This document shows positions 27,220 through 46,071 of a stretch of 64,000 bases of DNA, in pieces. A program made the translations under genes and the position numbers. The notes beneath the pieces are model-generated. The model saw only the letters and a list, made by a program, of their open reading frames with translations, was not told the origin of the DNA and made no database searches. The DNA is from Deltaproteobacteria bacterium (GTDB taxonomy: Bacteria; Myxococcota; Kuafuiibacteriia; Kuafuiibacteriales; Kuafuiibacteriaceae), in assembly GCA_040218735.1 (NCBI GenBank), contig JAVJQW010000021.1:91629-155628 (forward strand), read 5' to 3'. How positions within the stretch are numbered: the stretch's first letter is position 1; each line of letters opens with the position of its first letter.

Positions 27220-28920
27220 GTGATTGGACCCTACGGCGGCCATCTGGTGGATGGCCTGGTAACGCCCGACCAAGCAGACGCACTCAAGGAAGCCTCCCGT
27301 GATTGGCCGTCCTGGACGCTGACGCCCCGACAGATCTGCGATCTGGAGCTCCTCCTGAACGGTGGTTTCTCGCCGCTCGATGGGTTCATGAAGCAGGCCG
27401 ACTACGACGGCGTCGTCGAGAAGATGCGCCTCGCGAGTGGCGTGCTGTGGCCGATGCCCATCACGCTCGACGTCCCGGAGGAGGTCGCCGAGAAGCTCGA
27501 GGCCGGTGGCTCCCTCGTCCTGCGTGACATCGAAGGGGTGATGTTGGCGGCGCTCGAAGTCGAGGACGTCTACCGCCCGGATCGCACCAAGGAGGCCGAG
27601 AAGGTCTTCGGGACCACGAACGTCGAGCACCCCGGGGTGAAGCACCTGTTGGAGGCGACGAACCCGGTCTACGTCGGCGGTCGCCTGCGCGGGATTCAGC
27701 TCCCGCTGCACTACGACTTCAAGGAGCGTCGCAATACGCCGCGCGAGCTCCGCAAGCGCATGGAGCTCAACGGCTGGTCGGACGTCGTCGCGTTCCAGAC
27801 GCGGAACCCGATGCACCGCGCCCACGCCGAGCTGACGATGCGCGCGAGCGCGGAGAAGAACGCGAAGCTGTTGATCCACCCGGTCGTCGGTATGACGAAG
27901 CCGGGCGACGTCGATCACTTCACGCGGGTGCGCTGCTACGAAGCGATCCTCGGCAACTACCCGCAGGGGGAGGTCGACCTGTCGCTGCTGCCCCTCGCGA
28001 TGCGCATGGGGGGCCCGCGCGAGTGCCTGTGGCACGCGATCATTCGGCGCAACTACGGCGCGAATCACCTGATCGTCGGGCGCGACCACGCCGGACCGGG
28101 CTCGGACTCGCAGGGCAACCCGTTCTACGGTCCGTACGACGCCCAAGCGCTGCTCAACGAGCACGGCGAGGAGATCGGCGTGAAGATGGTGCCGTTCCGG
28201 TTGATGGTCTACCTCGAGGACAAGAAGACCTACGCGCCGATCGACGAGGTGCCGAAGGACGAGAAGTACCTCACCATCTCCGGCACGCAGCTGCGCGAGA
28301 AGCTCGCGAACGGCGATGACATCCCGGAGTGGTTCACGTTCCCGTCGGTCGCGGCGGAGCTGCGCAAGAGCCACCCGCCGCGTTCGAAGCGCGGGCTCAC
28401 GGTGTTCTTCACCGGGCTCTCGGGCGCGGGCAAGTCCACGGTCGCCAACGTCCTGACCATGCGGCTCCTCGAGCACGGCGGGCGGAGCGTCACGCTGCTG
28501 GACGGCGACATCGTCCGCACGAACCTCTCGAGTGAGCTCGGCTTCTCGAAGGAGCACCGCGACATCAACATCCGCCGCATCGGCTTCGTGGCCTCGGAGA
28601 TCACGAAGGCCGGGGGCATCGCGGTGTGTGCGCCGATCGCGCCGTACGATGCGACGCGCAAGGAGACGCGCGAGATGGCGGAGAAGTATGGCGGGTACGT
28701 GCTCGTGCATGTGGCGACGCCCCTGGAGGTCTGCGAGCAGCGGGATCGCAAGGGCCTCTACGCGAAGGCGCGGGCCGGGATCATCAAGGAGTTCACCGGC
28801 ATCTCGGATCCCTACGAAGCGCCGCAGGACGCGGAGATCGTCCTCGACACCTCCGGCATCACGCCGGCGGACGCGGGCGAGCGGATCTGGGCGTACCTCG
28901 CGCAGCAGGGCTACGTCTGA
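27220..28920 (+). CDS. sat/cysC: Bifunctional sulfate adenylyltransferase (ATP sulfurylase) / adenylylsulfate (APS) kinase
   Basis: The N-terminal ATP-sulfurylase domain carries QTRNPMHRAH and GRDHAG motifs. The C-terminal APS kinase domain has the P-loop FFTGLSGAGKST and the loop DGD(I/N)VR...LGFS. The single 566-aa polypeptide synthesises PAPS. Confidence 0.95.
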   Translation: MIGPYGGHLVDGLVTPDQADALKEASRDWPSWTLTPRQICDLELLLNGGFSPLDGFMKQADYDGVVEKMRLASGVLWPMPITLDVPEEVAEKLEAGGSLVLRDIEGVMLAALEVEDVYRPDRTKEAEKVFGTTNVEHPGVKHLLEATNPVYVGGRLRGIQLPLHYDFKERRNTPRELRKRMELNGWSDVVAFQTRNPMHRAHAELTMRASAEKNAKLLIHPVVGMTKPGDVDHFTRVRCYEAILGNYPQGEVDLSLLPLAMRMGGPRECLWHAIIRRNYGANHLIVGRDHAGPGSDSQGNPFYGPYDAQALLNEHGEEIGVKMVPFRLMVYLEDKKTYAPIDEVPKDEKYLTISGTQLREKLANGDDIPEWFTFPSVAAELRKSHPPRSKRGLTVFFTGLSGAGKSTVANVLTMRLLEHGGRSVTLLDGDIVRTNLSSELGFSKEHRDINIRRIGFVASEITKAGGIAVCAPIAPYDATRKETREMAEKYGGYVLVHVATPLEVCEQRDRKGLYAKARAGIIKEFTGISDPYEAPQDAEIVLDTSGITPADAGERIWAYLAQQGYV

Positions 28921-28941
28921 CGCGCGGGGCGACGCGACGCC

Positions 28942-44728: not shown

Positions 44729-46071
44729 TGAACGTATCCGAGGGTGCGCAGCTTCTCGACGAGCTCCGGGCTCACGTCCTTGCGAACCTTCCGCTGCGCG
44801 GCCGCGTAGTTGGCGAGGGTGCCGTTGTAGTAGCGCGCCATCTTCAGGCGCGCGTCGGGTTGGGTGTCAGCGATGTCCTTCAGCTCGAAGGGATCGTCGC
44901 GGAGATCGAAGAGTTGATCGGGCCCGCTCGAGAGGCGGAAGAGTTTGTAGTCGAGCCCGGTGATCGCGAGTTTGTCACCGGGCTCCCAGCCTTCACGGTG
45001 CCGGTGCACGCGCTCCGACAGCACGTACGGGCGTATGACCCGCCCGTCGAAGAGATCGATCCCCTCGAACTGCCGGTACAGCGCGTCGTCGAAGGGGAGG
45101 TCGAGGAGCCGTCCGAGCGTCGGGAAGATGTCGATGGTCGTCGCCATCCGCACGTTGCGCGCGGCGGCGAGCTCCAGCGATGCCGGCGGTTTGATGATCA
45201 GCGGGACGAGGATCTCCTCGTTGTAGATGCGCCCGTGGTCGTGCCAGTCGTGCTGCCAGAGCCCCTCGCCGTGGTCCGCGGTGATCACCACCGTGGTCTC
45301 TTCGTAGCGACCGGTGCGTTTGATCGCGTCGAGGAGACGTCCGAGGTGCTCGTCCATGTACGCGATCTCACCGTCGTACAGGTTGTTGATTTCGAGGACG
45401 TCGAACCGGACGTTGCCGATGCGGTGCTCGAGCTTCGTCCCGGTCTTCTTCACGAAGTCCTCGATGCCGTCCTTTTTGTCGAACTTGTCGTCGTACGGCG
45501 CCGGCGGCTCGTAGGGATCGTGGGGGTCCCAGAAGTGCACCCACATGAAGAACGGGCGGTCGTCGAAGCGCTCGAACTGCGTCATCGCGAGGTCCGCGGT
45601 GATCGCGCCGGGGCGGGGCCCGTCCTTGGGGTCGTCGTAGTGCTGGAAGCCGGAGGAGATCCCGGTGCCGTCCGCAACCGGGCTTGCGCTGACGACCGCC
45701 GCCGTCTGGTAGCCGGCCTTTTCGAACACCTCCGCGACGAGCCGAAGGTCCGGCTCCGACTCGAAGACCAGCCCATTGCGTACGATCTCGTGTCGGCGGG
45801 GCGGGGTGCCCGTCATGATCGAAGTGTGGGCGGGGAGCGTCGTGGCCATCGGGGTCGCGACGTTCTCGAAGACGATGGCTTCGTTCGCGAAGGCGTCGAG
45901 GTTCGGCGCGGTGTTCCGGAAGTAGCCGTAGGTCGGGAGGTGGTCGGCGCGGAGGGTGTCGATCGTGATCAGCAGGACGGACCGCCGCGACTGCGGATCG
46001 TCGTTCGCCGGACTCGAAGTCTTTGCGCACGCCGCGAGCGCCAACGCTGCGAGGGGACCCCACCGTCGCAT
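44725..46071 (-). CDS. Sulfatase-like (alkaline-phosphatase superfamily) lipoprotein, non-canonical active-site motif
   Basis: MRRWGPLAALALAACAKT carries a lipobox. Sulfatase motifs are SVLLITIDTLRADHLPTYGY, VVITADHGEGL and the Ca-binding DHG. The FGly position reads T-T-L-P-A-H instead of C/S-x-P-x-R. Its stop overlaps the next gene's ATG (ATGA). Confidence 0.85.
   Translation of the reverse strand: MRRWGPLAALALAACAKTSSPANDDPQSRRSVLLITIDTLRADHLPTYGYFRNTAPNLDAFANEAIVFENVATPMATTLPAHTSIMTGTPPRRHEIVRNGLVFESEPDLRLVAEVFEKAGYQTAAVVSASPVADGTGISSGFQHYDDPKDGPRPGAITADLAMTQFERFDDRPFFMWVHFWDPHDPYEPPAPYDDKFDKKDGIEDFVKKTGTKLEHRIGNVRFDVLEINNLYDGEIAYMDEHLGRLLDAIKRTGRYEETTVVITADHGEGLWQHDWHDHGRIYNEEILVPLIIKPPASLELAAARNVRMATTIDIFPTLGRLLDLPFDDALYRQFEGIDLFDGRVIRPYVLSERVHRHREGWEPGDKLAITGLDYKLFRLSSGPDQLFDLRDDPFELKDIADTQPDARLKMARYYNGTLANYAAAQRKVRKDVSPELVEKLRTLGYVQ

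Follow-up and report, generated by a model that had tools for sequence, protein, structure and literature searches.

What use does a bacterium make of activated sulfate when the genes that activate it stand beside a sulfotransferase and a set of alkaline-phosphatase superfamily enzymes? This question is raised by a 64-kb stretch of the Myxococcota contig JAVJQW010000021.1, referred to below as the window, in which positions 27220 to 46071 carry two convergent, tightly packed operons, one on each strand as judged from the junction sequences. Between them they encode a synthase for 3'-phosphoadenosine-5'-phosphosulfate (PAPS), a small sulfotransferase (ST), two nucleotide pyrophosphatase/phosphodiesterase-like paralogues (NPP1 and NPP2), two sulfatase-fold lipoproteins (Sulf1 and Sulf2), a metallo-phosphoesterase of the PHP type and two small proteins, p269 and p103. 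The answer that we favour, with about even confidence, is that the locus serves sulfation and not sulfate assimilation, as a dedicated system joined to an envelope module that is older and uncharacterised.

Genes were called from third-position GC content (GC3 frame analysis; the window is about 68% G+C) together with Pfam and NCBIfam scans. The components of the proposed system are as follows.

27220-28920, plus strand: Sat/CysC, a bifunctional ATP sulfurylase/adenosine-5'-phosphosulfate (APS) kinase (Pfam PUA_2, ATP-sulfurylase and APS_kinase)
30499-33000, plus strand: PHP/DUF3604 lipoprotein of the CehA/McbA type (Pfam PHP and DUF3604; lipobox LIAC)
32997-35267, plus strand: Sulf2, a sulfatase-fold lipoprotein whose N-terminal domain has about 320 aa (Pfam Sulfatase, 4e-43)
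38990-39559, minus strand: ST, a minimal Sulfotransfer_1/_3 protein of 189 aa, predicted to be cytoplasmic (5'-PSB loop and 3'-PB motif)
39570-40379, minus strand: p269, a membrane protein of 269 aa with three transmembrane (TM) segments and a predicted TMCO1/EMC3/DUF106-like (Oxa1 superfamily) fold
40385-40696, minus strand: p103, 103 aa, tandem ribbon-helix-helix (RHH)-like units (family signature, weak RHH matches)
40713-42626, minus strand: NPP2, a periplasmic lipoprotein of the COG3379 type (PF01663; Pfam Phosphodiest, 6e-33)
42623-44728, minus strand: NPP1, a hairpin-anchored COG3379-type enzyme of the alkaline-phosphatase superfamily (Pfam Phosphodiest, 1e-33)
44725-46071, minus strand: Sulf1, a sulfatase-fold lipoprotein and first gene of the minus-strand operon (Pfam Sulfatase, 7e-41)

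All the genes named in the first-pass annotation were recovered in place by GC3 frames and the family scans. The same annotation had described the whole minus-strand operon as coupled by ATGA overlaps, which proved right for two of the five junctions (Sulf1/NPP1 and NPP1/NPP2); at the remaining three the genes are separated by 16, 5 and 10 nt. On the plus strand, GTGA overlaps join the PHP gene to the YjbR-domain gene before it and to the Sulf2 gene after it, and a 21-nt spacer follows sat/cysC.

Judged by its sequence, the product of 27220-28920 is a bifunctional, cytoplasmic PAPS synthase. It scored 914.2 bits against the NCBIfam equivalog model NF004040 (cut-off 669), and its three Pfam domains scored between 1.7e-52 and 5e-83. 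No PAPS_reduct (cysH), NIR_SIR (sulfite reductase) or related family was found in any real open reading frame (ORF) of the window, which extends 27 kb to the upstream side of sat/cysC and 35 kb to the downstream side, and within these 64 kb the locus does not fit the definition of an assimilatory sulfate reduction locus (cysDNC-cysH-cysIJ/sir). Domain scans of the window likewise returned no CysQ-type phosphatase for 3'-phosphoadenosine-5'-phosphate (PAP) and no pst or phoB genes. ST carries the 5'-phosphosulfate-binding loop as LPRSGTS and the 3'-phosphate-binding motif as RRNLDEILRS, and by these motifs and its P-loop-like sulfotransferase fold it is a member of the PAPS-dependent sulfotransferase superfamily; the nearest solved folds are those of the tyrosylprotein sulfotransferases (TPSTs). 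Its gene lies within the minus-strand operon, 10 nt after that of p269. The family of ST is very large (7923 matches), with identities of 53-60% in several phyla.

The arrangement is more than a chance one, as it recurs in independent metagenome contigs. The six-gene minus-strand operon was intact in four relatives, L001 (ST 96% identical), L003 (78%), L008 (about 67%) and L009 (about 65%), and, together with Sulf2 and PHP, recurred in relatives down to about 60% identity. Conservation of the operon as a unit, on which the first-pass annotation had staked its interpretation, was thus observed. The Sulf2 gene is convergent with and directly adjoins the ST gene in L003, L008 and L009, and the PHP/DUF3604 gene is adjacent to the cluster in all four relatives. 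Within 10 kb of the L003 cluster no PAPS gene was found. In L009, Sat/CysC, PHP and Sulf2 form one operon that is directly convergent on the six-gene operon, and in L008 CysD and a CysN/CysC fusion, which make PAPS by a non-homologous route, stand next to PHP in place of the PAPS synthase. These PAPS genes are the strongest evidence: as two non-homologous PAPS routes occupy one position, a functional link to PAPS is favoured over a chance neighbourhood.

The reach of the minus-strand operon beyond these relatives was evaluated by scanning one genome per species with an alignment of the NPP paralogues. This gave more than 588 relatives, the best 80 of which were analysed (loci L010-L089) by tblastn, ORF clustering and local hidden Markov model searches with flanks of up to 10 kb. 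Among these best 80, NPP1 remained about 50% identical over some 680 residues across phyla, its groups being Terriglobia, Aminicenantes, Vicinamibacteria, Kofleriaceae and Polyangia, Binatia, Calditrichaceae, Cytophagia and Bacteroidota, Phycisphaeraceae, Steroidobacteraceae and Rheinheimera. NPP2 was present in 76 of 85 loci, and the p269 and p103 families in 70 and 67 of the 80 species-level loci. The core of the operon is accordingly an older, uncharacterised four-gene module of NPP1, NPP2, p103 and p269 that is found in many phyla. Clustering of the neighbours at the 80 loci returned as recurrent these four families, sulfatase-fold proteins, ST, PAPS genes and a cytoplasmic third paralogue of the NPPs; the only other recurrent neighbours were lineage-specific housekeeping genes (Hfq, HflX and similar).

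Genes for sulfation accompany the module in a part of these loci. ST was found in 17 of 80, mostly directly beside NPP1 or p269, and PAPS genes in 10 (Sat in 5, APS kinase in 8, CysD in 2). Of the 80 loci, 24 had at least one ST or PAPS gene within 10 kb; among the 44 with full flanks the number was 15. In L021 the module is co-stranded with a methyltransferase, Sat, CysC, the glycosyltransferases GT4 and GT2 and a FemAB-like gene, and L025 has the same ORF order as judged by sequence clusters alone. A Cytophagia metagenome-assembled genome (L031, 16116-18752) encodes an 878-aa fusion of PUA_2, ATP sulfurylase and a COG3379-type Phosphodiest domain, downstream of which follow an APS kinase ending in the Leu-Gly-Tyr (LGY) tail described below, another cytoplasmic NPP paralogue and a GT4 glycosyltransferase. 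In L034 and L082, APS kinase genes (with Sat in L034) are interleaved with NPP paralogues and the locus holds no canonical ST. The earlier view of a dedicated, PAPS-consuming and non-assimilatory system is supported by the lack of cysH and sir in 64 kb, by the syntenic PAPS genes of L008 and L009, by the 24 loci in 80 and by the fusion in L031.

NPP1 and NPP2 are Phosphodiest (PF01663) paralogues that are 38% identical. The bimetal ligands D84, D435, H439, D496, H497 and H648 were invariant in eight sequences of the two proteins, as was a serine (S123) that aligns with the nucleophile threonine of ENPP1. The alignment to ENPP1 is significant only over the N-terminal 75 residues or so, and NPP1 and NPP2, at 640-700 aa, have large inserts and carry Ser, not Thr, at the nucleophile position. 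NPP1 is the most conserved gene of the cluster, with 70% invariant columns among four orthologues. Its N-terminus consists of a signal-peptide-like helix, a short uncharged loop and a second TM helix (AYVGPGAGIAFL...) followed by RRKKPPKK. NPP1 contains 8 Cys compared with 2 in NPP2, and NPP2, Sulf1, Sulf2 and PHP contain 1-3 each. By the positive-inside rule and its 8 Cys, the catalytic domain of NPP1 probably faces the cytoplasm. Lipoboxes were found on NPP2 (AAACSS), Sulf1, Sulf2 and PHP, so that the initial description of both NPPs as lipoproteins stands for NPP2 and has to be given up for NPP1, which is predicted to be held by its hairpin anchor. With NPP1 facing the cytoplasm and NPP2 in the periplasm, the two paralogues therefore probably act on opposite sides of the inner membrane. 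In 28 loci (L027, L028, L031, L034 and others), from Aminicenantes and other phyla, a third COG3379 paralogue without TM segments (NPP3, cytoplasmic, about 430 aa) lies directly upstream of NPP1 and is sometimes duplicated. A distant COG3379 homologue, annotated as 'alkaline phosphatase family protein', was also seen on plasmid pHTUR04 of Haloterrigena turkmenica (L090, 158400-159992), where its neighbours are glycosyltransferase, epimerase, polysaccharide deacetylase and GNAT genes; this placement in a glycan-biosynthesis cluster points to a glycoconjugate.

Turnover of the sulfated product by Sulf1 and Sulf2 had been proposed from their annotation as sulfatase-like proteins. Both do have the sulfatase fold, their Pfam Sulfatase matches spanning the full model and the N-terminal metal-binding Asp motifs being present as DTLRAD and DTVRQD. 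Type I sulfatases need Cys or Ser in the motif (C/S)xPxR for formylglycine formation. In Sulf1 the formylglycine site reads T-L-P-A-H, with Thr at the formylglycine position and His at that of the Arg (HMMER alignment to 4uph and 2vqr), and in Sulf2 it reads T-K-P-S-V, where Thr takes the place of the nucleophile and Val that of the Arg (HMMER alignment to S1_30A); both sequences are invariant among orthologues. No FGE or anSME gene was found by domain scans of the window. Because Thr replaces the Cys or Ser and the motif Arg is replaced too, Sulf1 and Sulf2 fail a test that defines sulfatases, and turnover by sulfatases is not supported; from their sequences both are probably phosphoester enzymes. 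A simple motif search of the 67 sulfatase-fold neighbours at other loci found Thr to predominate among the matches, with 31 giving no match and 6 giving Cys or Ser.

An extracytoplasmic sulfatase fold with a Thr nucleophile is a hallmark of phospho-alcohol transferases and hydrolases, not of sulfatases, and LtaS, EptA/MCR-1, OpgB and CptA are transferases of this kind. Sulf1 and Sulf2 resemble them in fold, in the Thr at the nucleophile position and in being extracytoplasmic, which is a resemblance only; the NCBIfam matches are weak. They differ from LtaS and EptA in being lipoproteins that lack an N-terminal multi-TM domain, and their sequences stand nearer to those of phosphonate monoester hydrolases and true sulfatases; the motifs T-x-P-x-H and T-x-P-x-V are uncharacterised. 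The PHP lipoprotein consists of an N-terminal repeat domain of about 480 aa and a PHP/DUF3604 metallo-phosphoesterase domain. It scored 87.5 bits against the NCBIfam model CehA_McbA_metalo (cut-off 80), and its HxH motif GDVHMHS is invariant. A role as pAp phosphatase was considered for it and rejected, as the match covers 43 residues around the HxH only (36.9 bits against a cut-off of 400) and the protein is a predicted lipoprotein.

An AlphaFold2 model of p269, built on an alignment of 46 homologues, was confident, with a predicted local distance difference test score (pLDDT) of 92.9. The order predicted is TM1, a cytosolic coiled-coil hairpin, TM2, a periplasmic Ig-like beta-sandwich (residues 127-232) and TM3; the beta-sandwich gave weak Ig-like matches only in a Foldseek search against the PDB. 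By its modelled three-TM core and cytosolic coiled-coil hairpin between TM1 and TM2, p269 falls into the DUF106/EMC3/TMCO1 branch of the Oxa1 superfamily. Weak Pfam EMC3_TMCO1 matches were obtained for 5 of the 46 homologues, one homologue carries the JGI name 'DUF106 family', and the family comprises 3259 representatives at 50% identity, all of about 270-290 aa. The DUF106 group has been described as archaeal and eukaryotic (PMC5868721). In contrast to TMCO1, EMC3 and archaeal Ylp1 (PMC5868721), p269 is bacterial, carries its Ig-like periplasmic domain between TM2 and TM3 and is encoded beside alkaline-phosphatase superfamily enzymes in 70 of 80 species-level loci. YidC, another member of the Oxa1 superfamily, has been described both as an insertase and as a lipid scramblase (PMC11997395).

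The p103 family has the signature K.KI..eL...GYsS.dEFv.H.LEKE followed by the tail EE.kKRL+GLGYI(E/D). There are two RHH-like units per protein in Myxococcota and one elsewhere. Pfam RHH_1 matched 5 of 24 homologues at E >= 0.0095, matches to FitA and PSK were also weak, and hhalign against the RHH domain of NikR gave a probability of 79%, the NikR query sequence being approximate. The tail is shared. Three proteins of the locus end in it, p103 (EKRLRGLGYID, 40385-40402), Sulf1 (EKLRTLGYVQ, 44725-44742) and Sulf2 (HLQALGYFND, 35247-35267), and in six frames these are the only ORFs of the window that end in LGY[ILVFM]x0-4. The LGY tail is invariant in orthologues and across phyla, and in other phyla it also ends some APS kinases and DUF2061 membrane proteins (L031, L034 and L082). 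It is carried by proteins predicted to be cytoplasmic and by proteins predicted to be periplasmic alike, and NPP1 and NPP2 are the only components having a paralogue in each compartment. Since the tail occurs in both compartments and only the NPPs are paralogous in each, we infer that it may dock its carrier onto the NPP of the same compartment.

Taken together, these features suggest the following course of events. Sat/CysC would supply PAPS, and with it ST would sulfate an acceptor associated with the membrane, on the cytoplasmic side. The glycosyltransferase and methyltransferase partners seen in other phyla make a lipid head group or a lipid-linked glycan the most likely acceptor, and a membrane-linked glycan or lipid is our best guess. 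NPP1, anchored at the cytoplasmic face, would process a nucleotide-linked, phosphodiester-linked or sulfonucleotide intermediate, and p269 might move the polar head group across the membrane or insert and organise NPP1. In the periplasm NPP2, Sulf1, Sulf2 and PHP would cleave or transfer phosphoester-linked groups on the exported molecule and would remove no sulfate. The operon would be regulated by p103, and the shared C-terminal LGY tail would dock accessory proteins onto the NPP paralogue of their own compartment.

Several points weigh against this proposal. The acceptor is conjectural, and the window's own cluster has no glycosyltransferase. Roughly 70% of the species-level module loci have no ST or PAPS gene within 10 kb, and sulfation may be an optional add-on to the module or may be encoded elsewhere. 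Members of the ST family are present in unrelated settings as well, such as between a substrate-binding protein (SBP) gene and an ABC exporter gene in L004 (SBP-ST-ABC exporter). The topologies are predictions, and the roles of p269 as scramblase or insertase and of the LGY tail in docking are ones that we infer.

The main rival explanation is that the cytoplasmic COG3379 enzymes, NPP1 and NPP3, act directly on sulfonucleotides. They would either clear PAP, APS or pyrophosphate, thereby pulling sulfate activation and relieving inhibition by PAP, or use APS or PAPS as donor via a covalent Ser intermediate, with the rest of the module serving that chemistry. ENPP1 is known to hydrolyse PAPS, and enzymes of the alkaline-phosphatase superfamily catalyse sulfuryl transfer promiscuously. 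The strongest support comes from the Sat-NPP fusion of L031, which makes hydrolysis of PAP or PAPS by the NPP-like proteins plausible. The interleaving of sulfation genes and further NPPs (Sat, NPP3, CysC and NPP3') with NPP1 in L034 and L082, where a canonical ST is missing, the lack of a CysQ-type PAP phosphatase in the window and the conservation of the Ser/Thr nucleophile with a complete bimetal site are all in line with it. The main difficulty is that the periplasmic NPP2 and its partners cannot reach PAPS or PAP. Moreover the cluster of the window has a canonical ST of its own, the fusion was found in one locus only, and the activity of every member is assigned from sequence. We consider this explanation unlikely, and as less likely still we rate a bolder form of it. 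In that form NPP1, NPP2 and NPP3 would be APS- or PAPS-using enzymes of a new class, acting via a covalent Ser intermediate at both faces of the inner membrane. The TMCO1/DUF106-like protein would carry this intermediate or the donor across the membrane, and the LGY tail would tag the Thr-type sulfatase-fold proteins, APS kinase, DUF2061 and the RHH regulator as members of a 'sulfation metabolon'. If true, this would mean sulfuryl or adenylyl transfer by COG3379 enzymes and a tail that assembles the metabolon or marks substrates.

Coincidence was evaluated as a further explanation, with Sat/CysC serving ordinary sulfate assimilation and the alkaline-phosphatase superfamily and PHP proteins forming an unrelated set for phosphate scavenging or phospholipid remodelling. 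Five predicted phosphoesterases, four of them exported, do resemble Pho-type scavenging sets, cysH could be sited elsewhere in the genome, and most module loci have no sulfation gene nearby. Nevertheless the association recurs with two non-homologous PAPS routes, with ST in 17 of 80 loci and in the form of a gene fusion, ST sits inside the operon 10 nt after p269, pst, phoB, cysH and sir are all lacking in 64 kb, and NPP1 is predicted to be cytoplasmic. Coincidence is accordingly held to be very improbable. The least probable explanation, that ST is a protein-tyrosine sulfotransferase whose substrate is the Tyr of the ...RL+xLGY(I/V/F) tails (peptide EEIKKRLRGLGYID) of p103, Sulf1 and Sulf2, and elsewhere of APS kinase and DUF2061, draws on the restriction of the tail to these three window ORFs and on its invariance across phyla, but has against it that Gly and not an acidic residue stands beside the Tyr, that the tail is found in 67 of 80 loci compared with 17 for an adjacent ST, that ST relatives in other contexts (L004) have no neighbour with an LGY tail, and that Sulf1 and Sulf2, as lipoproteins, leave the cytoplasm by Sec.

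The genes of the interval that fall outside the conserved set are a BtuF/TroA-like protein, the YjbR-domain protein, a homologue of the eukaryotic Major Vault Protein (MVP) and a Cys-rich protein, the last two inserted between the convergent operons. The first two belong to the plus-strand operon:

28942-29832, plus strand: BtuF/TroA-like (Peripla_BP_2-like) protein (Pfam and NCBIfam matches weak, below cut-off)
29855-30502, plus strand: YjbR-domain protein with a Lys/Ala-rich repeat tail (Pfam YjbR and HC2-like; start set at GTG 29855)

The BtuF/TroA-like protein is co-transcribed and outside the conserved set, having no signal peptide and occurring only in the window and L001. The YjbR gene is found beside PHP in L001 and L003 and not in L008 or L009, and is a lineage-specific companion of the PHP gene. 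Its repeats at about 30230-30480 are 30-nt tandem repeats encoding (KKSAAKK[PT]TA)n, a histone-H1/HC2-like tail, and their antisense strand gave rise to several terminator-like matches. A promoter and terminator scan of the locus returned nothing exceeding shuffled expectation, and no Rfam family or tRNA was found across the window.

The MVP homologue (35376-37898, plus strand) is a full-length bacterial one of 840 aa with Pfam Vault_3 and MVP_shoulder matches, collinear with residues 435-762 of rat and human MVP (E 6e-8); bacterial MVP homologues have been described previously (bioRxiv 10.1101/872010). It stands between the operons in the window and L001 only, and its absence from L003, L008 and L009 led to its rejection as a cluster member. 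The Cys-rich secreted protein (37990-39105, plus strand) has a C-terminal TM helix and an Arg-rich tail. About 115 nt of its ORF lie opposite the 3' end of the ST gene, and the protein is conserved only in L001 and L002 (69% identity). Directly upstream of sat/cysC lies a 704-aa lipoprotein with beta-helix-like repeats (25075-27189, plus strand). This lipoprotein, the Cys-rich protein, a CcmH-like protein and an 870-aa PQQ-like protein were rejected as cluster members, being present only in the near-identical L001 and L002. The product of 20079-24977 (minus strand), of about 1630 aa, has an HExxH region of the Met-zincin/reprolysin type and is not conserved beside the cluster at other loci. 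Further downstream, 50299-55477 on the minus strand encodes a UbiX-like flavoprotein, UbiD, an AMP-binding (MenE-like) enzyme and a MenC-like member of the enolase superfamily; GH3-family and MBOAT genes come next. UbiD and UbiX are also found upstream of the operon in L003, and not in L008 or L009, and were judged unrelated to the cluster. A sulfated menaquinone, suggested by the UbiX, UbiD, MenE-like and MenC-like genes at 50-55 kb, was rejected as the product, as these genes are unlinked to the cluster in L008 and L009.

The pairing of PAPS synthesis with a sulfotransferase is of a known kind, represented by NodPQ/NodH and RaxPQ/RaxST. In rhizobia, NodP/NodQ and NodH provide dedicated PAPS synthesis and a sulfotransferase for sulfation of the Nod factor. 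The present locus is similar in having a second, non-assimilatory sulfate activation beside a PAPS-dependent sulfotransferase, which in the Nod case decorates an exported, glycolipid-like molecule. It differs in the Sat/CysC fusion (CysDN/C in one relative), in the minimal ST of 189 aa and in the lack of nod-type glycosyltransferases, and its alkaline-phosphatase superfamily enzymes, DUF106-like membrane protein and RHH protein have no counterpart in nod clusters. In Xanthomonas, RaxP/RaxQ together with RaxST and RaxX carry out tyrosine sulfation (PMC4646787). That system likewise joins PAPS synthesis to a TPST-like bacterial sulfotransferase (PMC4646787), and here TPSTs are the nearest folds and co-encoded proteins share a Tyr-containing tail. 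Unlike the Rax system, the locus has neither a secreted peptide of the RaxX kind nor a RaxABC type I secretion system, the context of the LGY Tyr is not acidic, and ST is a candidate member of the TPST family at most.

A precedent for sulfation of a lipid-linked sugar at the cytoplasmic face is given by the Agl5-Agl15 pathway of Haloferax volcanii, where Agl7 has a part in sulfating the hexose bound to dolichol phosphate (PMC3892788), a step proposed by the authors to be needed before translocation (PMC3892788). The likeness extends to the distant haloarchaeal COG3379 homologues in glycan clusters. The Agl pathway serves archaeal N-glycosylation, whereas the cluster of the window has no glycosyltransferase, flippase or oligosaccharyltransferase; Agl7 (HVO_2046) counts as a lead. 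Searches of the literature on COG3379, on DUF3604 or on operons combining a sulfotransferase, the alkaline-phosphatase superfamily and PAPS returned nothing relevant. In the literature searched we found no description of the coupling to the module, of the Thr-type 'sulfatases', of a bacterial TMCO1/DUF106-like protein, of the Sat-NPP fusion or of the shared LGY tail.

Through this cluster, PAPS synthesis and a minimal ST are linked with a module of four genes, apparently uncharacterised so far and widespread, being found in Acidobacteriota, Myxococcota, Bacteroidota, Calditrichota and others. To our knowledge, dedicated bacterial sulfation systems are few and come mostly from symbionts and pathogens (Nod factors, RaxX and mycobacterial sulfolipids), and Thr-type 'sulfatases' are, as far as we know, routinely mis-annotated as sulfatases. 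If the link holds, it would provide the first functional handle on COG3379 proteins, on the Thr-type 'sulfatases' and on the bacterial TMCO1/EMC3-like protein, and it would point to an unrecognised sulfated component of the envelope in abundant soil and sediment phyla.

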